A stretch of DNA of 64,000 bases, taken from positions 560,463 through 624,462 of the forward strand of contig CP065002.1 in NCBI GenBank assembly GCA_016700095.1, read 5' to 3'. The stretch is from Candidatus Woesebacteria bacterium (GTDB lineage Bacteria > Patescibacteriota > Microgenomatia > UBA8517). The notes under the pieces were generated by a model. The model was not told where the DNA came from and did no database searches. It saw only the letters and a program-made list of their open reading frames with translations. This document shows positions 6,269-42,632 of this stretch, piece after piece. Positions within the stretch are counted from its first letter, which is position 1. The number at the start of each line of letters is the position of its first letter. The translations under genes were made by a program, and so were the position numbers.

Positions 6269-7600
6269 ATGGCGATGTCACAACAAATTAATGTACGTAT
6301 CCCGCCTCACTCATCGGACGCGGAAGAATCCGTATTGGGTGCACTGCTTCTTGATAAGGATGCCGTAATTGCAATTGCGGAGTTTTTGTCACCCGAGGAC
6401 TTTTACAATGAAAAGTTAAAAGAAATATATTCATCGGTTCTTGATTTATATCAAGATAGAACTCCCATTGATGTCTTAACCATTTCTGAAGCTCTTAAAA
6501 AGAAAAAGATTCTAAAAAAAATCGGTGGTGTGTCGTATTTAGCCGAATTGACAAACAAGGTACCGACATCAGCACACATAGAACACTACGGAAAAATTGT
6601 TAAAGATACGGCGATAAAAAGAAGTATGATGTCTGCTGCTAGCCGGTTAGTGGAATTGTCGATGGACGATGGTCTAGCTGCTCAGGAATTATTGGACAAA
6701 GCCGAAAGTGAAGTATTTTCCCTAACACAAACATCGATTGATAAATCGTTTGTTAAAGTACGTGATGCCTTGTCGGAAAGTTTCGACCGATTAGACGAAT
6801 TACATAAAGACAAAAGCGGTATGAGAGGAATTGCCACGGGTTTCAAAGATCTCGACCAGACCTTAGCCGGTTTACAAAAGTCGAATTTGTTAATACTTGC
6901 CGCACGACCTGGTATGGGTAAATCAACCCTGGCATTAAATATTGCACAAAATATTTCCGTAAACAGTAAACGCCCAGTTGGTTTTTTCTCTCTTGAAATG
7001 AGCAGGGAAGAATTGGTTGATAGATTATTGGTAACCCAGGCTGATATAGATGCTTGGAAATTAAAAACGGGAAAATTATCAGAAGATGATTTTACCAAAT
7101 TGTCGAATGCGATGGGAAAACTCGCTGAGGCACCTCTTTTTATTGATGACACACCGGCACTTACAATTCTTGAAATGCGAACAAAAGCTCGCAGATTGCA
7201 AGTCGAAAGTGGTGTGGATTTAATAATTGTTGACTATTTACAACTTGCCCGCGGCCGTACGTACGACAATCGCGTTCAGGAAGTTTCGGAAATATCTCAA
7301 GGGCTCAAAAACCTTGCCCGCGAATTGAAAGTTCCGGTAATAGCCCTTTCGCAGTTGAATAGGTCAGTTGAACAGCGTGGAATAAAAAAACCTCAACTAG
7401 CGGATTTACGCGAATCCGGGAGTATCGAGCAAGACGCAGACGTGGTTATGTTTTTGTGGAGAGAAGATGACGAAGATTTATCTAATTATGAACTGGATAT
7501 CGCCAAACACAGAAACGGACCCTTGGCGTCAATCAAACTGTTTTTCCGTGGAGATAGAGTACGGTTTTACGATCGAGAAGGCAAAAACACCAAGAGCTAA
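6269..7600 (+). CDS. dnaB: Replicative DNA helicase DnaB
   Basis: N-terminal DnaB domain (SDAEESVLGALLLD), Walker A GMGKSTLALN, and a RecA-like C-terminal domain. Confidence 0.9.
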   Translation: MAMSQQINVRIPPHSSDAEESVLGALLLDKDAVIAIAEFLSPEDFYNEKLKEIYSSVLDLYQDRTPIDVLTISEALKKKKILKKIGGVSYLAELTNKVPTSAHIEHYGKIVKDTAIKRSMMSAASRLVELSMDDGLAAQELLDKAESEVFSLTQTSIDKSFVKVRDALSESFDRLDELHKDKSGMRGIATGFKDLDQTLAGLQKSNLLILAARPGMGKSTLALNIAQNISVNSKRPVGFFSLEMSREELVDRLLVTQADIDAWKLKTGKLSEDDFTKLSNAMGKLAEAPLFIDDTPALTILEMRTKARRLQVESGVDLIIVDYLQLARGRTYDNRVQEVSEISQGLKNLARELKVPVIALSQLNRSVEQRGIKKPQLADLRESGSIEQDADVVMFLWREDDEDLSNYELDIAKHRNGPLASIKLFFRGDRVRFYDREGKNTKS

Positions 7601-7822
7601 CCCTGTAAAATTTTTTTGTCATGTACATTGATAGCTTACTTATTTATTACCTCCAGCATAAATAATCGGATGACTAAAATATTTCCTCGAGGTATTTATT
7701 GTATGCAGTAGACCGCAAGTATGAGATTACAACTCGCAAATTGTCGGACAATAAACGTAATTTCCTAAAGGACAAATAATAAAAAATAGAAGCAATCGGA
7801 TTTTTGTTTACCGCTAGTCAAG

Positions 7823-7908
7823 TGGCCGGAGAGGGACTCGAACCCTCACGAGGTATTATCCTCATAGGTTTTTGAGACCTACGCGTCTGCCAGTTCCGCC
7901 ATCCGGCC
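7823..7908 (-). tRNA. tRNA-Leu, anticodon CAA, long variable arm
   Basis: The reverse complement folds as a cloverleaf: acceptor GGCCGGA/TCCGGCC, anticodon stem TAGGT/ACCTA with loop CTCAAAA, a long extra arm, and T-arm GGTTCGAGTCC. CCA is not encoded. Confidence 0.8.
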
Positions 7909-15455: not shown

Positions 15456-16226
15456 ATGACCAAACGTCAACGGTTTATCCTCTCTTCTTTTTTACTATCT
15501 CTTGGATTTATTGCGATTGCCTTTATTGAAAATCAATACAGGATTTTGGGTATCGGAGTTCTAGGTTTATTTACATTAATAATATATTACTGGTCCTTGC
15601 GAGAGGGTTTGGGTTTGAATATGACTCTGATCACTCTTGTTTTACCTTTTTTCTTTACGGTTGGCGTAGGACTATTTTGGTTTTTATTACCTGTGGGTTT
15701 TGCTGTCAGAGTTCCGATTGTAATTCTTTATGGTCTCGGGATATATACTCTTTCACTTACGTCAAATATTTATACTGTCGCGGCAATTAGAACCATTGCC
15801 TTACTGCGTGCCGCGCGGGGAGTGGGGTTTGTGCTTACACTGCTTACTTTCTTTTTAATTTATGACGCAATATTTTCGATACGCGAAAGTATTTTTATTA
15901 CCTCACCATTAATCGCGGTGACCTCCATGCCGTTATTTTTGCAAGGGTACTGGTCTGTCGGATTGGAGAAACGCATAACCAAGGAAGTTGTTAATCTGTC
16001 CTTAGTTGCGAGTTTAATTTTGGGGCAAGTAGCCCTGCTCCTTCACTTCTGGCCGGTAACTGTTGTTGTCGGATCTTTGTTTTTGACCATTGCTTGCTAT
16101 ATCATTTTGGGATTGGGTCAAGCTAAAATAGAAGGACGGCTTTTCAAGCAGACTGTTCGAGAATATCTCTTTTTGGGAATGCTGGTGTTTATCGGTATGT
16201 TTTTTGCTACACGTTGGGGTGGATAG
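15456..16226 (+). CDS. Hypothetical polytopic membrane protein
   Basis: Hydrophobic along its whole length. Confidence 0.5.
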   Translation: MTKRQRFILSSFLLSLGFIAIAFIENQYRILGIGVLGLFTLIIYYWSLREGLGLNMTLITLVLPFFFTVGVGLFWFLLPVGFAVRVPIVILYGLGIYTLSLTSNIYTVAAIRTIALLRAARGVGFVLTLLTFFLIYDAIFSIRESIFITSPLIAVTSMPLFLQGYWSVGLEKRITKEVVNLSLVASLILGQVALLLHFWPVTVVVGSLFLTIACYIILGLGQAKIEGRLFKQTVREYLFLGMLVFIGMFFATRWGG

Positions 16227-17670
16227 TTTTGTTTATCCCAAGCTTACCTTACTTATGCTTGTTTTTCGTTAAAAATTAAAGTAAGCGATGCACTTACTTT
16301 ATTCACACTTATTTGGGCAATTCCACTTCGTAAACATGGCCGGGTCAGCATGAATAATTAATTATTGAGGAAACATAAGACTTAAATATTTTTGATACAT
16401 CGACAAAGGGGGAGGAGTGTGGGTGTAAGTATATCCTATAATATATTATGCGACGTATTTACCTCATTGTTTTCACGAATATTATAGGATCTTTTCACGA
16501 AATAGGTTAGTTTTTCATCGACCATAATTTAGCCGAAGCTAGACGCCGTTAGGAAAGTAAATAGATGTTATACAATGATATAGTTAATAGGCACGAAAGA
16601 CCCCATTAGTGATATAGTTTGTACAATAAATGTGGATATCTTTATATCGACTTGGTAGGTTTGCTAGGTACGCTACTTTCTTTGGAGCTATATTTCAAGG
16701 TACCCGGACAAAGAGGATGACGGTAAGACGGGTTTAGTTAAGCCTTAGAACCCCTTATTGGTTCTCTGTAATTACGGTACGCCAAAGCGTGTGTAGTTAT
16801 AAGAACATCAAAAAGTAATAAGTCGCACAATAATACTTTTGCGACTAATACAATATACCAGGGTGGAGACTTCATAGATAACAACTTCCATAAACATATC
16901 GCGTTAAGTATTGTATTACTTTACTATAAATGTATTTAGTTCTCCTTTTAGTAAGTTGGCTAAACAATCTTTCCGAATATATACCGAAATATATTTTTAG
17001 CCTTCTAACCTTACTCCCCCAACTTGTTGTGTGAATTTACTTTATGAAAATATAGCGAGAGATAATATTTTTATAAAGTAAACTTTGACGTGTAGGGATA
17101 AGACATAAATAGGGGTTATTAATTAGTTACTGAGTAAAATAATATTAAGTGAATGAATCTCATATCATTAAAGAAAACAAACATGGCTTAGAATTGAAAT
17201 AAGAAAGCCATAGCCTTAAAAAGAAGCGAATTTAAGCCTATTTATGATACACAATATTGAATATTGAATTTATGAAATAGCATATAGGAAATGTTAAATA
17301 CTAATTAATGAATATTGGAAAACAAAATTAAAGACAAAATGTTAGACAATTAAAGACGGATTATTAGAAAACTTAATTGAAAGCGAAAATAACACAATAT
17401 TGAATTCGAATATTGAAAAGAGTAAACGCATATCGAAATGAAATAAAGAAAACTGAATATTTAACAAGGGAAAATGAAATCTGTAGTTATGTGTAACTTG
17501 TAAGACTAAAGTAATGCAAGCTTAATATGCGGTATTCAAAGCTCGTGGTTTGAAGGCATAAGAAAAGAGATAATAACAAAAAAATTATTGGTCGCACATT
17601 ATTGACAATAAAAACACTACCCTGTAGGATGAAATTATAGCTGTTTAATTAAAACATCTTACTGTAACTC
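16227..17670. other. 1.45 kb AT-rich region with no ORF of 60 aa or more on either strand; purine-rich plus strand over 17150-17520
   Basis: The ORF track is empty here. Visible local hairpins (gtcgca...tgcgac at about 16825-16850, gaacc...ggttc, ggctt...aagcc) and repeated AATATTGAAT motifs. Confidence 0.5.
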
Positions 17671-18627
17671 ATGGCTGCCCGCTCTGAAATTAGTCAACAC
17701 ATTGATTCCTTTTTGGAATATTTGGAGGTTGAGAAGGGCTCCTCTCCCCTAACAATTCGCAATTACCGTCATTACTTAACTCGCTTTCTTGAATATCTGG
17801 AGCATGAGGGGATTAGAACTAATTTAGCCGATATAAACAAAGAAACAGTTCGCATGTTTAGACTTTACTTAAGCCGGCTTCCGGGTAGTCCACGAAATTC
17901 ACAGCTTGATGCTGAAACGCTTTCAAGAAGGACGCAAGGATATCATGTTATTGCGCTCAGATCATTCCTTCGTTGGTTAATCAAAAACGACTTTAAGGTT
18001 ATGTCTCCTGATAAAATCGATTTACCCAAAGTCAAAGACAGAGAAGTACAGTTTTTGTCGGGGGAGCAAGTAGATAAAATTCTAAACGCCCCTACCCTAT
18101 CTAACATTAACGGTAAACGAGATAAAGCGATTTTAGAAGTGTTATTTTCTACCGGTCTTAGAGTATCGGAGTTGGTTAAATTAAATAAAGATAAAATTGA
18201 TTTTGCTTCACGGGAATTTGGTGTTGTTGGTAAAGGTGGGCGCGCAAGGGTGGTTTTTTTGTCTCAGCGGGCAGCTTCTTGGATACAAAATTATTTAGAT
18301 GCCAGACGTGATCATTTCACTCCCCTGTTCATCCGCCATAAAGGAAAAGTCGATCCATCAACGTCAAGTGAAAACATGCGTCTTACACCACGGAGTGTAC
18401 AAAGAATGATAAAAAAATATTCACATAAAATGAAGTTACCGATTGAAGTTACTCCACACGTCCTTAGACACAGTTTTGCCACAGATTTACTTATGGCAGG
18501 GGCAGACCTGAGAAGTGTACAAGAAATGCTTGGACACAAGAATGTGCAAACAACGCAAATCTATACACATGTAACCAATAAACAATTAAAGGATGTGCAT
18601 GAGGCGTTTCATGGAAGAGTAAAATAG
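17671..18627 (+). CDS. Tyrosine site-specific recombinase (XerC/XerD / phage integrase family)
   Basis: C-terminal HVLRHSFATDLLMAGADLRSVQEMLGHKNVQTTQIYTHV carries the R..H-x-x-R...Y catalytic motifs. The N-terminus is a SAM-like core-binding domain. Confidence 0.85.
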   Translation: MAARSEISQHIDSFLEYLEVEKGSSPLTIRNYRHYLTRFLEYLEHEGIRTNLADINKETVRMFRLYLSRLPGSPRNSQLDAETLSRRTQGYHVIALRSFLRWLIKNDFKVMSPDKIDLPKVKDREVQFLSGEQVDKILNAPTLSNINGKRDKAILEVLFSTGLRVSELVKLNKDKIDFASREFGVVGKGGRARVVFLSQRAASWIQNYLDARRDHFTPLFIRHKGKVDPSTSSENMRLTPRSVQRMIKKYSHKMKLPIEVTPHVLRHSFATDLLMAGADLRSVQEMLGHKNVQTTQIYTHVTNKQLKDVHEAFHGRVK

Positions 18628-18672: not shown

Positions 18673-19617
18673 ATGGCTGATGAAGTAACAACGGTGGTAC
18701 AAGAGTTAACCGCACAACAAAGTAGTAGGGCATTAGTAGAAAGATACAAAGGACATAAACCCCAAGAAACATTCATAGAATCAGTCAGAGGTCATGACGG
18801 TGTATTTCGACCAGTAAGTATAAGTGACGCGGTTGTTGATGTAAATAAAATGCCTTCTAGAGTAGATCCCAAAGATGCTCCAATTATACATGCACATGGA
18901 GGTACCCCCAAAGGCGACAAGCAAAAAGGTAATCCAAAAGTAAATGATGGGTTTACATCAGTATTTTCAGAAAAAAGACAACAGGAAATTGAAGAAGAAG
19001 AAAGAAAACAAAAAGAGGCGCAACACGCTGCCGAACAGCAAAGAATTAAAGAAGAAGAATTGAGGCAAAAATATATTAGAGATATCGCTGAAGGTGAGGC
19101 AAAACGGGTGGTGGGGTCTATTTATACAACCGAGGGTAGAAGAAATACAACACAGCTTATGGATCAATTAGTTGATGTTTCAAAGAAAGGTTTGTTTCCC
19201 AAAACTGATCGTGTCCGCGAACAGGTGCTTTATTCTGTAGATAGACTGATAGACCAACAACTAAGTGCCGAGTCTTTGGGTGTACTGGGATACAAACTTC
19301 AAGTACGCTGGGAAAAAGAAAATCCGATTGGTAAACATGCAAGTCGTAGCGAACAAGATGAATGGAAAAAGAAGAAAGAAGAACATTTCGAAACAGTAAC
19401 GCAACAACTGCGCGATATTGCTCAAGCTTTAGCTTATTTGGCCAGAGGAAGAAACGCGGTGAGAATCCCTCGTTTTTCAGGTGAACAAAGGAAAATTGTT
19501 GATAGTGGAATAGAAAGAAAGGTGTATTGTGATCAATTCGAGAAATCGTGGAGGGGGGTTCAAGATAAATTCACAGAAGACAAAAATCCTCCGTGGTATA
19601 TAATTAAACAAAGTTAA
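18673..19617 (+). CDS. Hypothetical protein with a highly charged E/K/Q-rich coiled-coil segment
   Basis: 314-aa ORF with no recognisable domain. Confidence 0.45.
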   Translation: MADEVTTVVQELTAQQSSRALVERYKGHKPQETFIESVRGHDGVFRPVSISDAVVDVNKMPSRVDPKDAPIIHAHGGTPKGDKQKGNPKVNDGFTSVFSEKRQQEIEEEERKQKEAQHAAEQQRIKEEELRQKYIRDIAEGEAKRVVGSIYTTEGRRNTTQLMDQLVDVSKKGLFPKTDRVREQVLYSVDRLIDQQLSAESLGVLGYKLQVRWEKENPIGKHASRSEQDEWKKKKEEHFETVTQQLRDIAQALAYLARGRNAVRIPRFSGEQRKIVDSGIERKVYCDQFEKSWRGVQDKFTEDKNPPWYIIKQS

Positions 19618-19619
19618 TA

Positions 19620-20165
19620 ATGGTAGAAGAAGTTAGTCAGCCAACTGTGCAAGCCAAAGAAGCGGTTAGTTCGTGGGAAAAAACCGAGTGGAGTGGAGTA
19701 TATGATGGAATGGATTTGGCTCATTATTGCTACGATACCGGGGAGAATAAAATAAACAGAGATATTTTAGATGAACTCACTAAAATTCAGAAGATGGGGT
19801 TACGTCAACGCCTTTTTTTAGATGAGGGAGGAAGAATGTCCATTGTGCTTGATAGACTTGATAGACTTCCCTTAACCGATGCTAGTAGTCAATCTGTGGA
19901 GGAGTTGTTTGGCTCAAAAGCGATTGCAAAAATTGCTGCCAAGGAACAAAAAGAAGAGAAAGAAATAACAGCAAGAATTATTAAAATTGCACAAGCAAGA
20001 GCCTATGTAAGAAACGGTGATATACCTGAAAATATACATACTACAGAGTTGGGTAAAGATAACGTGAGAAGGGATTTTTATAATAATGGTTTTAGAAATG
20101 GATGGAATACCACTAGAGATGCGACTAAATCTAGGCGGGATGAAAGTCCTTGGTATCTAACATAA
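19620..20165 (+). CDS. Hypothetical protein
   Basis: 181 aa, follows the previous gene with a 2-bp gap. No recognisable domain. Confidence 0.45.
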   Translation: MVEEVSQPTVQAKEAVSSWEKTEWSGVYDGMDLAHYCYDTGENKINRDILDELTKIQKMGLRQRLFLDEGGRMSIVLDRLDRLPLTDASSQSVEELFGSKAIAKIAAKEQKEEKEITARIIKIAQARAYVRNGDIPENIHTTELGKDNVRRDFYNNGFRNGWNTTRDATKSRRDESPWYLT

Positions 20166-20201: not shown

Positions 20202-22832
20202 TTATTGTTTTTTGATTTCCTCATCCTCGTCATCGATGGATTTTTTAAGTGCGGTTACACCCGTGACACTATCTGATGCTTTGGCAAATCGCATTAAGAT
20301 TACTCCTTGGGTAATCCTTCCCATCTGGGGAATATTTTTTGAAGGAAGTTTTATTACTTGACCCGACTTGCTTGTTACTACTATCATGTCGATTTCTTCG
20401 TTGACCATCGTAGCGCAAGCCAGAGCACCTGTTTTAGTATTTATAACAGACGCCTTAACTCCCTTCCCCGCCCTTTTTTGTACGGGAAATAGGTGTATTC
20501 CGGTTCTTTTACCAAGACCTCGCTCGGAAATAATAACCATATCGCGGTATGTTTTTCTGCGCTTATCTTTATTTTCTTTGATTTGTCCCGGAAAAACTTC
20601 CATTGTTATTACGTGGTCGTTGGGGCTAAGTTTAATTCCTGCGACGCCTGTCGTTGCTCTTCCCATGGATCGGACATTTGCCTCAGGAAACCTGATTGAT
20701 TTGCCCTGTTTTGAAATAAGCAAGATATGATCGTCTCCGTAAGTTTCCCTGACGTGGGCTAATTTGTCAGTTCCCTTTAGTCTCATGGCAATTAGTCCTG
20801 ACGTTCTCATGTTTTTGAAATCTTTGATTGAAGTTTTTTTAACGATGCCGTTACTGGTTGCCATAATTAAATATTTGATTTTACTTTCGGATCCGATCGG
20901 GAGAATGGACAATACGTTTTCACCCTGTTCCAGGTTTAGGAAATTAACTAACGCTTGACCCTTTCCTTGTCTTGACGAATCCGGTATATCCCATGCTTTT
21001 GTTCCGTATACTTTTCCTTTGTCGGTGAAGAAAAGCAGGTCATCGTGAGTAGTTGCTGAGTAAATATGTTCAATTTCGTCCTCTTCTTTGGTTGTCATGC
21101 CGATAACCCCCTTGCCTCCCCTGCGTTGTGATTTATAGGTATTTCTGGGCACTCGTTTGACGTAACCTGTTTTCGTAATCGTAATTAAAGTTTCTTCTTT
21201 GGGTATAAGGTCCTCTTCGGAGAAATCACCGATGGCTTGCTTGTAGATTTTAGTCAAGCGTTTGTCGCCAAATTTTTCTTTCAAATCTGTAATTTCTTCG
21301 ACAATAATATCCAACACTCTCTCGGGATTTCTTAGAATTGCAGTAAGTCGGTCGATTAATTTTTTAATTTCTTCGTACTCCTCTTCAATTTTTTGTCTTT
21401 CCAGGGCAGCAAGGCGCCTTAATTGCATGTCGAGAATTGCCGTCGATTGGATGTCTGTTAGCTTAAATCTGGTCATAAGATTTAATTTTGCTTCCTCTTG
21501 AGTCTTGCTTTCGCGGATAGTTTTTATAACGGCATCCAAATTGTCGAGCGCGATTTTTAATCCTTCGAGGATGTGAGCTCGCTTTTTGGCTTGGGTTAGA
21601 TCAAAGATGGTTCTTCTGACAATCACCTTTTGGCGGTGCTTAACGTATTCCACCAAAATTTGTTTGAGATTAACCGTATGTGGAGTGCCGTCGACAAGAG
21701 CAACGAAATTGGCAGAAAATGTGGTTTGTAATTTGGTATATTTATACAATCTGTTAAGAATCGATTTCGGTCTGCCATCTCTTTTTAGATCGATAGCAAC
21801 TCTTAGACCGTCCTTGTCTGATTCGTCTCTTAAATCTGCAATGCCTTTAATTTTTTTGTCTCTGACAAGATCCGCAATTTTTTCAACTAACTGCGCCTTG
21901 TTAACTTGGTATGGTAATTCGGAAATAATAATTTGTTGTTTCCCTTTTGCGCCTTCTTCGATTTCGGCTACTCCCCTAACCACAATCCGACCGCGTCCTG
22001 TAGCATAAACATCTTTTATTGAGTTACCGTCGTAAATAGTACCTGCTGTGGGGAAATCCGGTCCGGGAATGATACCAACCAAGTCTTCGACCGTCACATC
22101 ACTTTCAAAACTAATTGAAGCGGGATTTGTTTCCTTTTCAACAAAGTCTTTTTGCTCTCCTGAGGCGATTAAGTCGATTTTCTTGAGAACAAAACTGGCT
22201 TCGGTTTGTTGTGTATCTTTCTCGAAAATTACATGACCTTTTTCGATAGTTAAAATAATGGCGTCAACTACTTCCTTTAAATTATGGGGGGGGATTTTGG
22301 TTGCCATACCTACGGCAATTCCCTCACTGCCCATGAGCAAAAGATTGGGCAAAAGTGCCGGTAGATAAACAGGTTCTTTTTCCGTAGCATCGAAGTTGTT
22401 AGTAAACTCAACTGTTTCTTTATTAATATCTTCCAAAAGCTTTGGAGCATATTTGCTTAGTCTGGCTTCGGTGTACCTCATTGCCGCAGGGGGATCACCG
22501 TCGATACTGCCAAAATTTCCCTGTCCGTCAACGAGCGGATAACGCATCGAAAAATCCTGAGCGAGACGTACCATAGCGTCGTATACGCTGGTATCCGAAT
22601 GCGGATGGTATTTACCCAACACTTCTCCAACGACCTTGGCGGATTTGGAAAAAGCCTTACCGGGGACTAACCCCATTTTGTTCATGGCAAAGAGGATTCT
22701 CCTGTGAACTGGTTTTAACCCATCACGAACATCGGGAAGTGCACGCGAGACGATCACGCTCATGGCGTAATCGACATACGACTTTGACAGCTCTCTTGTG
22801 ATTGGTACTATTTCTACTTTTCCGATATCCAT
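20202..22832 (-). CDS. gyrA: DNA gyrase subunit A
   Basis: [14 protein letters not shown]...[20 protein letters not shown], a full-length GyrA with an acidic C-tail. Confidence 0.95.
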
Positions 22833-23027
22833 ATTTTTTATCTCCGCGATACAAATAATCCAATAAATTGGAGGCAGTACAATTTGTTATCTATAAATTG
22901 GAGATGTATTGTAATTAGTCATTATTGCATTGATAACCTAGCCATCAATACCCCTTAGCGTTTAGCGTATTTAATACTACATTTTTCGAAGCCACGAGAC
23001 AAGTGCTAGTATAAAAAATAGCCATGT

Positions 23028-23438
23028 TTAGTGAGAATGTGTTTCTTTACTACCGCTAACTACACCAGCCATATTGTTTACGATTATTGGGCGAAGAAGC
23101 TGAATTCCAACGGAAGCGATTTTATATCCGACATTAACAATAAAACCCATAATAACCAATTGTGCAATAAAGTTGGTTGTTTGGTTCATGATGCCGGCAG
23201 GAAGTATTTCCTGTTTTTTTGATGTTGGCATGTCGACACTGACCCCCGCATCGGTCAACTCTTGTGGAATTTCTACTTTGTATGATTGACCCAAATCGAT
23301 TTCCAAACCGGGAAGATCAAACATCTGAACGGGTTGGGTGTTTTGGGTAAAAAGCCCTAAAACATTAAAAACCGCATAACCTATGATTGTAAGACCAATT
23401 ACCAGTAGAGCATAACCAATAAGTTTTTCGTTTGCCAT
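23028..23438 (-). CDS. Small hypothetical membrane protein
   Basis: Two or three hydrophobic helices, between gyrB and gyrA. Confidence 0.4.
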   Translation of the reverse strand: MANEKLIGYALLVIGLTIIGYAVFNVLGLFTQNTQPVQMFDLPGLEIDLGQSYKVEIPQELTDAGVSVDMPTSKKQEILPAGIMNQTTNFIAQLVIMGFIVNVGYKIASVGIQLLRPIIVNNMAGVVSGSKETHSH

Positions 23439-23461
23439 ATCTAAAATTTCAATTACCTAAA

Positions 23462-25465
<2,004 letters not shown>

Positions 25466-25521
25466 TCACGTTAATGTAACTTACAACTGTAGTAGTTTAT
25501 AGTATACCTTGGGTAGAATTG

Positions 25522-26136
25522 TCAAACAAGATGCGTAATAAAGTTAAGCAACTGAAGTTTGACATTACCATTATCTAATAGCGCCAGATACAATTTATCG
25601 GCAGACTTCACATTAGTTGCGGCACGGATATCGACTTTATCCTGTAAATCATGTTGATAGTAATTTATTAGCGTTTCGGCAAATTGCAAAGCGGATTCTC
25701 GGTCTTTAATTTGTGATATAAATGTAAGTTTTTCGCCGATGGTCATCGCGTCAAAGTCAAGTGCTTCTTGGGAAACGTTCGCCGGTTGAGATGTTATGTA
25801 AATAACCTGACACCGCGAAGTAATGGTGGGAATTACTTTATGAATATTATTTGTGACCAAAATGTAGAACAAGTTCACCTGAGGCTCCTCGATACTTTTA
25901 AGAAGGGCGTTTGCCGCTTCGTGTGACAGATCTTGCAGATTGTTAACCAAAACAATCGTTGCTGTATCGATCTTTAATTTTGTAAAACCGATTAGCTTTC
26001 GTACGTCTTCAATTTTTTTAATTTCAAATTCAATAACCTTAGCACTTATTCTTTTCACCAACTTGTCAATTTCGCAATTTATGGCATCACCACCACTTCC
26101 TACAAGTAAATATGCATGCATAGCTAAATATAACAT
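25522..26136 (-). CDS. DNA polymerase III delta-prime-like subunit (short)
   Basis: HAYLLVGSGG with no intact P-loop, then LLKSIEEP...TITSRCQ, the clamp-loader AAA+ sensor motifs. Confidence 0.55.
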   Translation of the reverse strand: MLYLAMHAYLLVGSGGDAINCEIDKLVKRISAKVIEFEIKKIEDVRKLIGFTKLKIDTATIVLVNNLQDLSHEAANALLKSIEEPQVNLFYILVTNNIHKVIPTITSRCQVIYITSQPANVSQEALDFDAMTIGEKLTFISQIKDRESALQFAETLINYYQHDLQDKVDIRAATNVKSADKLYLALLDNGNVKLQLLNFITHLV

Positions 26137-33203: not shown

Positions 33204-33206
33204 TCT

Positions 33207-33247
33207 CGTAAAAAAGAGGCATTGTGAAATATATGCCTCTTTTTTGT
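33207..33247 (+). terminator. Rho-independent terminator after pilin 1
   Basis: aaaaagaggcat-tgtgaaatat-atgcctc followed by ttttttg. Confidence 0.6.
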
Positions 33248-33391
33248 GGGAAATCGATCCAGTGATTGGACTTGTTAAACTAATTTCGCAATATTTATAC
33301 TCTGGATTCCCCGACTTACACATTGTTATCCTTGACCTGCCTCGCCCATCGTAGCTAATTGGCGAAGGTGGAATCAAATCTTATATTTATC

Positions 33392-33767
33392 TGTCATCCC
33401 GCACTTGATGCGGGATCCAATATTCTCTTCTGGATTCCCGCTTTCGCGGGAATGACAATTCACCTTACTGTCATCCCACACTCCCGCCTACAACGCTTTG
33501 TGTAGCAACGCGGGCAGGTGATACGGGATCCAGTCCACATTCTTTCTGGATTCCCGCGTGCGCGGGAATGACAAAGAGGGACTGCAGGAATGACAAAAAA
33601 CGGGAATAACAAAAGCGCGCGGGAATGACAATTCACCTTACTGTCATCCCGCACTTGATGCGGGATCCAATATTTCTTTCCTGGATTCCCTTTTCCTCCT
33701 TCGCTGAAAGCTACGGAAGGACACGGCAAGGGAATGACAAAGAGGGACTGCGGGAATGATAATGATT
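33392..33767. repeat. GC-rich cluster of nested hairpin repeats with TGTCATCCC...GGGAATGACA ends and ATTCCC-N8-GGGAAT inner hairpins (dRS3-like)
   Basis: Three composite units at 33392-33457, 33469-33573 and 33642-33739. Units 1 and 3 begin with the same 30-odd bases. Repeated stems are atcccgca/tgcgggat, attcccgc/gcgggaat and tgtcat/atgaca. The cluster is visibly GC-richer than its flanks. Confidence 0.75.
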
Positions 33768-33843
33768 TAGATGCGAGAACACTAATGAAACGCGTATTGT
33801 TCTTGCATATTACTAACCAAATACAGTAAATTAAAGTATTAGC

Positions 33844-41970: not shown

Positions 41971-42095
41971 TGCGAACTTTGACTCTTCAATTATTTTTAT
42001 CAATATTAACTTTATAGACATACCGAACAATTTTGTACCTGGAGGAGCACACATTGAAGACCATAATGCAGCTATAACAATGAAGTAGTGAGCGA

Positions 42096-42335
42096 TTAAT
42101 CAATTTTTTCTTCGACCAATACGTACACCGAAGTTTTGTCAAGCGTGCTTTTAACGCGGAGAAGATTGCGGATAGCTTTAATTGTCGAACCACCTTTGCC
42201 GATAATTAGCCCCATATTTTCTTTGTCTGCAACGATAGTAAGCTCGAGACGATTATTTTCATTTTCGACTTCACGAATTTCGAAATTATCATTACCAAGA
42301 ATTCCCGTTAAAATGTAATGAAGAAGCTCTTTCAT
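42096..42335 (-). CDS. KH-domain RNA-binding protein (KhpA / YlqC-like)
   Basis: GLIIGKGGSTIKAIRNLL, a GxxG KH motif. Adjacent to rpsP. Confidence 0.7.
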   Translation of the reverse strand: MKELLHYILTGILGNDNFEIREVENENNRLELTIVADKENMGLIIGKGGSTIKAIRNLLRVKSTLDKTSVYVLVEEKID

Positions 42336-42338
42336 GTT

Positions 42339-42554
42339 TTATATTAATTTCTTTAGCGTAGCCGTTATTTGCGCACCTTTTTTGACCCAAGCATCTAGTT
42401 TTTTCTTGTCAATGCTTTTTTCTTGTGATTTGGGATTCCAGAAACCCAATACCTCAAGCGGTTTACCTGTAATTTTACGTTTTGAGTCTGTGACCACGAC
42501 CCTGTAAAAGGGTTTGTTTCTTGCTCCAAATCTTGCTAAGCGAATTTTGATCAT
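42339..42554 (-). CDS. rpsP: 30S ribosomal protein S16
   Basis: MIKIRLARFGARNKPFYRVVV... The track ORF extends to 42605 with a non-ATG start; the Met at 42554 matches the canonical S16 N-terminus. Confidence 0.85.
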   Translation of the reverse strand: MIKIRLARFGARNKPFYRVVVTDSKRKITGKPLEVLGFWNPKSQEKSIDKKKLDAWVKKGAQITATLKKLI

Positions 42555-42632
42555 AATTAAATTTAAGTCTGGGACAATTTTACTATAGTTTAACCAAAGC
42601 CTCAAGTGTGGGATATAAAAATGATGTATTTC

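Follow-up and report, generated by a model that had tools for sequence, protein, structure and literature searches.

Several described systems pair a Xer recombinase with its target DNA in ways that bear on the locus considered here. In one of them, the recombinase gene xerS adjoins its site, difSL, as a single module, and autoregulation by promoter binding has been proposed (PMC1914069). The dif sites of the archaeal recombinase XerA are near-perfect palindromes with conserved flanks, and archaeal dif shares 14 of 28 positions with the bacterial consensus (PMC2958812). The plasmid sites cer (about 280 bp) and psi join a Xer core to accessory DNA, and recombination at them is selective and independent of both FtsK and position; integrase-less filamentous phages with a dif-like site are the classic users of host Xer recombinases (PMC5357621). 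The locus described in the following belongs to a Candidatus Woesebacteria bacterium (contig CP065002.1 of assembly GCA_016700095.1) and lies in a stretch of 64,000 nucleotides, positions 560,463 to 624,462 of the forward strand, which is called the window and supplies all coordinates below. It is a gene-free gap of 1444 nt (16227-17670), bounded by the stop of a gene for a DUF5656 membrane protein (15456-16226) and the start of a gene for a tyrosine recombinase, xer (17671-18627).

The gap consists of three parts, namely a conserved module at about 16405-17210, a filler at about 17210-17590, and the promoter of xer at 17591-17630. We put at about an even chance the reading that the gap is a recombination and regulatory region linked to xer and not an RNA gene. 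The argument turns on three features:

16820 to 16847: core site of 28 bp in an 11-6-11 layout, with the 24-bp palindrome GTCGCACAA-TAATAC-TTTTGCGAC at 16822 to 16845
17591 to 17630, plus strand: promoter of xer, with an arm copy GTCGCACATT at 17591 to 17600, a -35 element TTGACA at 17602 to 17607, and a -10 element TAGGAT at 17625 to 17630
17671 to 18627, plus strand: xer, a Xer-family tyrosine recombinase of 318 aa with Pfam Phage_integrase and SAM-like N-terminal domains

In the window, the core reads AAGTCGCACAA-TAATAC-TTTTGCGACTA, and its arms agree at 8 of 9 positions (9 of 11 in the longer layout). The form conserved across relatives is GTCGCACAATAATACTTTTGCGAC. Inside the 24-mer, inverted 9-bp arms, GTCGCACAA and GTCGCAAAA, enclose a 6-bp spacer; counted with the weakly conserved bases that flank it, the layout is 11-6-11. 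Variation is allowed only in the spacer (TAATAC, TATAAC, TGATAC, or TGTAAC) and at position 5 of each arm, although the search pattern itself imposes part of the identity within the 24-mer; outside the 24-mer conservation is gone within about 4 nt (127 unique sites). The two variable arm positions, 5 and 20 of the 24-mer, vary independently, with C/G at 61 sites, C/A at 37, T/G at 15, and T/A at 14, where 11.6 T/A would be expected. The palindrome therefore fits two protein half-sites with the same degenerate position and not an RNA helix. In metagenome contigs, the pattern GTCGYACAATRWWACTTTTRCGAC is matched exactly at least 120 times, always in the DUF5656-xer context where the flank suffices. 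Exact matches to the core occur as one copy each on six contigs or chromosomes of 0.79-1.19 Mb. Conservation, architecture, and single copy are all directly observed.

The dif or att site of the recombinase, together with a regulatory region, was one of the options that the original prediction, made from the letters of the window alone, had offered for the gap. It is the best-fitting of them, but the site is the hairpin that had been listed without further claim, at 16822-16845. The weak dif candidate named at the time, a palindrome near 17600, belongs to the xer promoter, where it is the -35 region with TTGACA, and relatives do not preserve it as a palindrome.

The noncoding module of about 16405-17210 is conserved between the DUF5656 gene and xer in more than 130 loci of Microgenomates/Woesebacteria. 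Relatives of the DUF5656 protein occur in 16 species-representative genomes, all Woesebacteria or other Patescibacteria. Downstream of the gene, nearly all of these genomes have 750-1200 bp devoid of open reading frames (ORFs), often an ORF of about 240 aa next, and then the recombinase gene. With nhmmer, the part 16337-17036 is detected in 13 of the 16, in islands that are 85-97% identical, and the flanking protein is only 59-69% identical. Gene order and orientation are constant in loci with enough flank, running from YebC through DUF5656, the palindrome, optional genes, and xer to gyrA on the opposite strand, and this synteny persists where the DUF5656 proteins are 30-40% and the Xer proteins 42-57% identical. 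In all such loci xer follows the core on the same strand at a distance of 68 nt to 5.5 kb, and the linkage to xer, too, is a plain observation. The ORF-free tract that surrounds the core is large, with a median of 884 nt and a minimum of 622.

There is one clear exception to the ORF-free setting, locus L079, in which the core (6648-6671) falls in the last 16 or so codons of a 400-aa ORF (6623-7825, minus strand); there it is 68 nt upstream of xer, and no DUF5656 gene was detected nearby. Several of the public metagenome-assembled genomes L002, L003, L010, L011, L015, and L016 are titled “uncultured Gammaproteobacteria” or “Alphaproteobacteria” despite a locus of the Patescibacteria type, and these titles are probably taxonomic mislabels.

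The adjoining ORF had been assigned to the XerC/D family, and it does encode a Xer-family tyrosine recombinase. Its best match in the Protein Data Bank (PDB) is E. coli XerD (1a0p), with which the catalytic Arg, Lys, His, Arg, His, and Tyr all align; GLRVSEL, GKGG, HVLRHSFAT, LGH, and QIYTHV are conserved, and the catalytic set is thus seen to be intact. Among the NCBIfam models it scores 260.6 bits with XerD (cut-off 329.6), 254.5 bits with XerC (cut-off 335), and 230 bits with XerA_Arch (NF040815 recomb_XerA_Arch, the archaeal single recombinase), the last of these above its cut-off of 220. The scores for XerS (142.5 bits, cut-off 267) and for the integron integrase TIGR02249 (120.7 bits, cut-off 265) fall below their thresholds. 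It is the only recombinase gene among the roughly 35 window ORFs scanned and in the related loci. An integron with intI and attI was considered and rejected, the integrase score being below its cut-off, xer being co-oriented with the site, and no cassette array being present.

The core word appears a second time on the promoter of xer, which is the best sigma-70-like promoter of the region in a promoter scan (10 of 12 matches). A single arm copy, GTCGCACAAT, is found no more than 250 nt upstream of xer in 73 of the 89 loci with a placeable xer start. This copy is nearly always in plus orientation, typically at -60 to -100, and usually fused to TTGACA, as in GTCGCACAATATTGACA. Outside the palindrome and this promoter copy, the arm word is about as frequent as chance predicts. 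Whether the left arm has C or T correlates with the base in the promoter copy (odds ratio 5.3, p=0.013), a correlation to which shared ancestry may contribute. Going by the sequence, it would be simplest if a single protein, the recombinase, recognized both the palindrome and the promoter arm. On its architecture, its linkage to xer, its copy number, and this arm copy, the palindrome is predicted to be the target site of the neighboring Xer protein.

An arm copy fused to the -35 element in most loci also suits another explanation, one that does without recombination. The palindrome and the promoter arm would then be operators, either for Xer acting as a repressor or activator or for an unrelated regulator, and the 800-bp module would be a complex promoter, leader, and regulatory region for xer and for a gene resembling NT5C that many relatives carry in front of it. 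This explanation would also account for the location of the site away from any skew switch, for TATAAT words on both strands of an inverted repeat in the left flank, for a plus-strand stem with a T-run and a hairpin 30-45 nt before the next gene that look like leader elements, and for the position of the core in phages, upstream of terminase and late genes. However, tyrosine-recombinase cores are marked by just such a 9-6-9 (or 11-6-11) arrangement around an AT-rich spacer, and the neighboring gene encodes a recombinase with complete catalytic residues. At 0.27-5.5 kb from xer, and often in front of another gene, the palindrome is too distant for a simple operator, and a word present at only two places per locus would be unusual for a general regulator. 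Integrase-less contigs resembling filamentous phages carry the core as well. Operators without recombination are, in our view, a possible but doubtful explanation.

If the gap is a recombination and regulatory region, the locus might work as follows. One recombinase monomer would bind each arm of the core, by analogy with the core sites of tyrosine recombinases, and two copies of the site would synapse as a tetramer. With one site per chromosome, a site could find its partner only in the sister copy of a chromosome dimer or on an incoming element. Strands would be cleaved at the spacer edges and exchanged through a Holliday junction, and the outcome would be either resolution of the dimer or integration of an element carrying the same core. 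Through the arm copy fused to the -35 element of its promoter (17591-17607), the recombinase would regulate its own gene. The flanks, like the accessory sequences of cer and psi, may control the timing and direction of recombination, and the site would therefore not need to sit at the replication terminus. In this scheme we infer Xer as the binder, recombination at the core, and the roles of the flanks. The full version of it, a position-independent chromosomal dimer-resolution site that has accessory arms of the cer/psi kind and a core mimicked by integrase-less phages, is offered tentatively and would not be our bet as it stands.

The conserved flanks, about 420 bp long on the left of the core and 380 bp on the right, are made of strictly oriented short words. 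These words are 30-60-fold denser inside the element than outside, keep a near-perfect orientation, and extend to the half of the loci that is more distant. Several of them form direct-repeat pairs at 10, 11, or 22-23 nt, near whole helical turns. From left to right, the window carries the following:

16408 to 16425, plus strand: left boundary block GGGGGAGGAG..GGGTG (consensus AGGGGAG..GGGG), purine-rich and conserved in relatives
16433 to 16490: inverted repeat ATCCTATAATAT / ATATTATAGGAT (consensus CCYATAAT ... ATTATAGG), 12-nt arms, 100% complementary
16470 to 16479 and 16492 to 16501, plus strand: direct repeat TTTTCACGAA, two copies at 22 nt spacing
16533 to 16538, plus strand: left CCGAAG word, in relatives CCGAAG-N6-CCGAA, in conserved alignment columns
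16576 to 16585 and 16610 to 16619, plus strand: TGATATAGTT, two copies, which in relatives are usually 10 nt apart
16631 to 16639, minus strand: DnaA-box-like 9-mer ATATCCACA with one mismatch, in relatives the perfect TTATCCACA
16860 to 16869, plus strand: G-rich block AGGGTGGAGA, directly right of the core
16870 to 16972, plus strand: AT-rich tract, T-rich on the top strand, of conserved length and unconserved sequence
16973 to 16988, plus strand: right CCGAA pair CCGAATATATACCGAA at 11-nt spacing, in relatives CCGAA-N6-CCGAA
17014 to 17020, plus strand: pyrimidine block CTCCCCC (consensus CYCTCCCC), median position +191
17036 to 17082, plus strand: AT-rich inverted repeat with an 18-bp stem (94% complementary), then CTTT
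17185 to 17209, plus strand: hairpin GGCTT-N15-AAGCC, a diverged copy of the GGCCTTAGAATCGATT..GAGGTC element of relatives

On the left side, 69 loci have AGGGGAG on the plus strand, with a median position of -394 relative to the core. The inverted repeat at 16433-16490, which has TATAAT on both strands, encloses the first TTTTCAC box; ATTATAGG is found in 68 loci and CCYATAAT in 56, and C/T variation in the left arm is uncompensated in the right arm. There are no exact copies of TTTTCACGAA elsewhere in the window, and pairs of this type are 22-23 nt apart in 27 of 31 relatives with two copies. Inside the element, TTTTCACR occurs 186 times on the plus strand and 31 times on the minus strand, at about 40-fold the density outside, and the word order in relatives is TTTTCACRA-ATATTATAGG-N-TTTTCACRA, with two boxes flanking an arm of the inverted repeat. 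The count for TGATATAG is 116 plus to 4 minus, in 97 loci, and it is present in 41 of 65 distant loci.

On the right side, 60 of 92 non-redundant loci have the G-rich block at 11-21 nt from the core, and the bin at +25 from the core has a guanine-plus-cytosine (GC) fraction of 0.47 and a GC skew of +0.33. From +50 to +150, the GC fraction is 0.26-0.33 and the AT skew -0.24 to -0.35 (93 loci). The right CCGAA pair, with 45 plus and 0 minus copies inside the element, is held at 151-158 nt from the core (quartiles 154-156) despite the unconserved T-rich sequence between them. The 3' module of relatives consists of two small hairpins. The inverted repeat at 17036-17082 occupies the place of the first, a small stem with a T-run (AGACGA..TCGTCTTT), and the second, GGCCTTAGAATCGATT..GAGGTC, stands about 30-45 nt upstream of the next gene in relatives. 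The two hairpins that had been pointed out in the window, gtcgca-N12-tgcgac and ggctt-N15-aagcc, are indeed there, the former being the core at 16822-16845 and the latter the hairpin at 17185-17209. As identities for the conserved words, parS and the NrdR, LexA, and Spo0A boxes were considered and dropped because their geometry or sequence is unfit. By analogy with known sites, the flanking words are probably accessory or architectural protein-binding DNA and in part the leader of the downstream gene.

Another option in the original prediction was a large structured noncoding RNA (ncRNA). Such an RNA would be a transcript of about 650-800 nt over the module, with the words as RNA motifs and the palindrome as an RNA hairpin. 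Islands of very high conservation in diverged sequence, a conserved length, and a strictly fixed motif orientation are what such a transcript would leave; so are a -10-like CCYATAAT at the left end, a stem and T-run at the right end with few compensatory changes, and small species-specific hairpins seen by eye in some spacers. A scan with Rfam 15 at the gathering threshold returned only three tRNAs, elsewhere in the window, and at E<=10 the region 16100-17800 gave only a spurious miRNA match (E=7.6). The large families whose inclusion had been recommended (OLE, GOLLD, ROOL, HEARO, and raiA) gave no match. That the region could not be matched by eye to RNase P, tmRNA, SRP, or 6S in the original prediction agrees with the lack of any covariance-model match to them; group I/II introns gave no match either.

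Structure prediction points the same way. A global MAFFT alignment of 93 sequences of 1 kb was too gappy, so modules defined by anchors were used instead. In four such modules from 20-36 relatives, folded on both strands, RNAalifold found 0-8 pairs per module and no covariation, which was the further check that had been proposed. The sole helix is the near-invariant palindrome, no pair outside it is compensatory, and in the palindrome itself the independence of positions 5 and 20 leaves mismatches on both strands. Folding of 16260-17060 gave z-scores of the minimum free energy (MFE) of -1.4 on the minus strand and -0.2 on the plus strand, neither of them significant, and alignment-free z-scores of the spacers (-0.2 to -1.3) do not differ from those of the coding control (-0.6 and -0.9). 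The small stem with a T-run in the 3' module of relatives is clean in 12 of 41 loci, with few compensatory changes on the plus strand; it may be the end of a plus-strand transcript or the leader of the next gene, but it is not enough to class the module as an RNA gene. An RNA on the minus strand was considered and set aside, since the hairpin at 16277-16301 is unconserved and the strand hints conflict, G·U patterns favoring minus and the T-run hairpin plus. Long-range GGGGAG/CTCCCC pairing between the blocks at 16408 and 17014 was likewise rejected, as the energies of cognate and non-cognate duplexes barely differ (p=0.025 on plus, 0.33 on minus). The motif pairs at 10, 11, and 22 nt suit DNA-binding proteins, and one arm of the core is found again on a promoter. 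The absence of RNA structure signals is itself an observation, and a large ncRNA is very unlikely to be the explanation of the gap.

The core is not confined to chromosomes. A relaxed pattern, GTCGYAMAA-N6-TTKTRCGAC with a free spacer, was used for the IMG/VR viral contigs (L138-L257), and with it the core is found in at least 120 of them; the strict host pattern GTCGYACAATRWWACTTTTRCGAC has no match among viral contigs. The viral spacers are AT-rich and dif-like (TATACA, TGTATA, TATATC, CATATA, GATATA), and 97 of 120 viral sites are outside ORFs of 70 aa or more. In 36 loci, the core is 74-2300 nt upstream of the genes for the large terminase and the portal. A Zot-like ATPase, a hallmark of filamentous phages, is encoded in at least 10 viral loci, mostly contigs of 4-8 kb. 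Only 2 of 120 viral contigs have a Xer-like gene in the retrieved stretch. By analogy, these 120 or more contigs appear to match the pattern of elements that borrow a host Xer. Around the viral sites, enrichment is confined to G-rich blocks, AACAGGGG, and TATATA runs and does not include the accessory words of the hosts; AACAGGGG/CCCCTGTT words often flank the site. A geometry of core, G-block, and AT-tract shared by hosts and phages was proposed and found unsupported, there being no fixed geometry. The phages share the core only, without the DnaA box, and a BLAST search of the viral core against cultured phages gave nothing useful.

With such contigs in view, the core could be taken as an attachment site for integrase-less elements, that is, phages of the kind called integrative mobile elements exploiting Xer (IMEX), or plasmids, and the DNA between core and xer as cargo or the decayed remains of past integrations. 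The variation in gene content and in core-xer distance, from 68 nt to 5.5 kb, would follow from this, as would the stretch at 17210-17590 without a homolog in relatives and a core class seen in so many viral contigs, including those with Zot, almost never with a recombinase nearby. On the other side, a second full site, phage genes, and a Zot-like gene are all missing from 136 host loci, the strict host pattern finds no virus, the viral spacers differ from those of these hosts, and the filler holds no coding remnant. As an account of the gap, a landing site with its relics is unlikely; it is compatible with the recombination and regulatory region preferred here and not exclusive of it.

Several observations weigh against that preferred reading. 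In an ungapped comparison with E. coli dif, the core is identical at 12 of 28 positions. Neither a second full site (up to 4 mismatches) nor an integrated element turned up in the 136 host loci just mentioned. No known accessory-protein box was recognized in the flanks, and their role is assigned by analogy only. The small 3' stem with its T-run hints at plus-strand transcription through the region, and a protein other than the recombinase could read the GTCGCACAA word. Finally, there is no GC-skew inversion at the site within -17/+47 kb, and the defining location of dif is thus not found here.

A candidate dif has been required to resemble dif, to occur once per genome, and to lie at terC (Le Bourgeois et al., PMC1914069), and the distance of dif from the GC-skew shift point is 0-1.39% of the genome and stays below 3% in outliers (Kono et al., PMC3025954). 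Gene orientation converges on the region in 93 of 93 non-redundant loci: over the 10 kb to the left of the site, the plus strand holds 92-100% of coding sequence, one conserved gene excepted, and from +3 to +8 kb the minus strand holds 78-95%. Because raw GC skew is confounded by the coding strand, four-fold degenerate sites were used. Coding-strand skew at these sites is +0.03 for plus-strand genes and -0.32 for minus-strand genes on the left, and -0.01 and -0.27, respectively, on the right. Taken strand-wide, the skew is +0.17 on the left and +0.13 on the right in the 93 loci and +0.15 and +0.13 in the 64-kb window; the top strand is G-rich on both sides, which is why no inversion can be placed in the span examined. 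Since this defining feature of dif was tested and is absent, the site is not filed as a canonical dif. Under ordinary bidirectional replication, it is inside a replichore and co-oriented with replication. Placing the terminus from the complete genome CP066686.1, in which the site falls at about 0.79 of the record, was tried and is uninformative, the start of the record not being stated in the paper. As a side observation, four-fold sites in the window and the 93 loci have a top-strand G excess of about +0.15 and a coding-strand C preference of about -0.05 to -0.14, and raw GC-skew plots therefore mostly track gene orientation and can mislead.

Unidirectional replication would give skew of the same sign to the left and to the right, as is seen here, and some Microgenomates have a monotonic cumulative skew for which an adjacent origin and terminus have been suggested (PMC7143001). 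The module might accordingly be oriC, or the start/end junction of a chromosome that replicates unidirectionally, with the DnaA box and AT-rich tract serving initiation and the palindrome serving dimer resolution or termination. The DnaA box TTATCCACA is perfectly conserved and of fixed orientation in 83 loci, where its plus-strand reading, TGTGGATAA, has 85 plus and 0 minus copies; there are two further DnaA-box-like TTTTCACA words, a G-rich block and then a fixed-length AT-rich tract beside the core, and dnaB, gyrA, gyrB, and holB nearby. However, DnaA boxes number only about one per element. With up to 1 mismatch the mean is 1.12 per element against 0.39 in shuffles, and with up to 2 mismatches there is no excess (4.86 against 4.51). 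No dnaA was detected in any locus with a probe sequence, genes converge on the region instead of diverging from it, and the DnaA box is not part of what phages share. Among the features of an oriC, the AT-rich tract is present, and a DnaA-box cluster, a skew minimum, divergent genes, and adjacency to dnaA were not found. A replication element of either kind is highly improbable. The most specific form of the idea, in which the module is the coincident start and finish of (almost) unidirectional replication in Microgenomates and the Xer core resolves dimers there, is the least probable proposal made here, because the window lacks the extreme G/C strand disparity of genomes with monotonic skew. 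If true, it would explain a dif-like site in 800 bp of conserved noncoding DNA without a skew inversion, and it would give a sequence-level handle on the monotonic GC skew of some Microgenomates (PMC7143001).

To the right of the module, the gap changes in character:

17210 to 17590: lineage-specific AT-rich, purine-skewed filler with AATATTGAAT-type repeats

The window has no similarity to any relative beyond about 17205-17220. Many relatives have an ORF of about 230-250 aa between module and xer (for example L012:7540-8295, L004:7543-8241, and L015:7935-8666), and 2 of 3 tested gave a weak to moderate Pfam match to NT5C (5'-deoxynucleotidase). This NT5C-like ORF is absent from the window, L003, and L011, and L008 and L016 carry unrelated ORFs there, so the slot is a position of variable cargo. 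The filler may be what was left where relatives carry the NT5C-like gene. A pseudogene of that gene at 17210-17590 was sought by tblastn and six-frame profile search and nothing was found, the L008 control of the profile search being uninformative, as its ORF is a different protein. The decayed integrated element that had been the third option for the gap thus survives in part: only 17210-17590 could be a remnant, though without a trace of NT5C, and the 800-bp module is not decaying and keeps a fixed synteny throughout the clade. The repeated motif ACACAATATTGAAT reported for the region is present at 17249 and 17392. A near-perfect palindrome related to it, CAATATTGAATTCGAATATTG, at 17395-17415, is not conserved in relatives.

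The gap stood out at first because it is about 1.45 kb without ORFs, and this is borne out by a longest ORF of 48 aa on either strand. It is the largest gap of the window, in which non-overlapping ORFs of 100 aa or more are separated by a median of 45 nt. The accompanying statement that other gaps measure 0-250 bp captures this compactness but overlooks two long ORF-free gaps, 41971-42632 (662 nt) and 33204-33843 (640 nt), neither of which has an Rfam match at the gathering threshold. The description of the tract as AT-rich and skewed fits its overall GC content, 30.9% against 38.6% across the window, and its right part, 17100-17550, where the GC fraction is 0.24-0.26, the AT skew +0.26 to +0.28, and the GC skew +0.24 to +0.30, a plus-strand purine excess. 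It does not fit 16350-17000, which is near-genomic at 0.32-0.38. An alternative genetic code or hidden ORF was also considered; ignoring any single stop codon gave no convincing frame. At its left end, the gap begins with a part that is particular to this lineage:

16227 to 16404: lineage-specific spacer after the DUF5656 stop, with a terminator-like hairpin at 16277 to 16301

In relatives, this spacer is only about 40-60 nt long, and no sequence in it is conserved. The hairpin, whose T-run is on the minus strand in a terminator scan, is not conserved either.

Downstream of xer are two ORFs on the same strand, 18673-19617 (314 aa) and 19620-20165 (181 aa), without a Pfam or NCBIfam match; they were not detected beside xer in related loci (tblastn, E<1e-8). 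Replication and topology genes cluster near the locus (6269-7600 and 20202-26136), with dnaB about 10 kb upstream and gyrA, gyrB, and the gene for a holB-like delta-prime subunit directly downstream on the opposite strand; the position of gyrA is conserved in the clade. In GyrA (20202-22832, minus strand), the Pfam domain DNA_topoisoIV is reported in two stretches, the best of which covers only profile positions 1-172 of 432, and the split match may reflect an insertion within the domain.

If the recombination reading is true, a large clade of uncultured ultra-small bacteria (Microgenomates/Woesebacteria) uses a single-recombinase Xer system in which a palindromic target is linked to xer, has an arm copy on the promoter, is set in conserved accessory DNA, and lies away from the skew switch. 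The combination would unite features known separately, namely the linkage of XerS/difSL, the palindrome and flanks of archaeal XerA, and the accessory sequences of the plasmid sites cer and psi. No description of Xer/dif in this radiation was found in the literature searched. The 24-bp signature finds the locus in metagenomes and provides a candidate class of attachment sites for integrase-less phages, including filamentous ones. For annotation, it would mean that a recurrent gap that looks like a missing gene is functional DNA and not a failure of assembly or gene calling.

The large ncRNAs OLE, GOLLD, ROOL, raiA, and HEARO resemble the locus in being long conserved ORF-free tracts in compact genomes with strong conservation islands, but here there is neither a covariance-model match nor a conserved secondary structure. 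Canonical XerCD/dif, as in E. coli and B. subtilis, shares with it a 28-bp site with 11-bp arms and a 6-bp AT-rich center, present in single copy; the inner arm bases are CGCACAA here and CGCATAA in the XerC arm, and the recombinase is closest to XerD in sequence, with the catalytic residues kept. Canonical dif, however, has two unlike arms for two recombinases whose genes are unlinked to the site, and it sits at the GC-skew shift point under FtsK/KOPS control, a location for which the test failed here. The IMEX (CTXphi, VGJphi, XacF1, and other filamentous phages) are integrase-less phage genomes with a dif-like core, and the viral contigs found here likewise carry the arm pair, nearly always without a recombinase nearby. 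The present case differs in that no integrated copy is seen at the host site, that the viral spacers are unlike those of the sampled hosts, and that many of the core-carrying contigs come from tailed phages, where the core precedes the terminase gene.

The plasmid sites cer (ColE1) and psi (pSC101) are similar in the arrangement of a core and several hundred conserved bp of oriented motifs at fixed distances. Their accessory DNA is one-sided and binds ArgR/PepA or ArcA/PepA, whereas the locus here is chromosomal, is conserved to the left and to the right of its core, and has words of another kind. With archaeal XerA/dif, the locus has in common a single recombinase, a near-perfect 11-6-11 dyad, conserved flanks, and a score above the XerA_Arch cut-off. 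The archaeal dif is not beside xerA and is in the termination region, though, and the host here is a bacterium whose protein scores higher on the bacterial XerD and XerC models. XerS/difSL offers the parallel of a single recombinase gene linked to its own chromosomal site as a conserved module, with autoregulation proposed for XerS and suggested here by the arm copy on the -35 element. The difSL site is 31 bp long with an 11-bp central region and lies directly upstream of xerS at the terminus; the site here has a 6-bp spacer and no skew inversion, and the full site is 0.07-5.5 kb from xer, with a separate arm on the promoter. Taken as a whole, the locus most resembles the single-recombinase Xer modules, XerS/difSL in its linkage and XerA in its palindrome, joined to flanks of the cer/psi kind in a non-terminal position.

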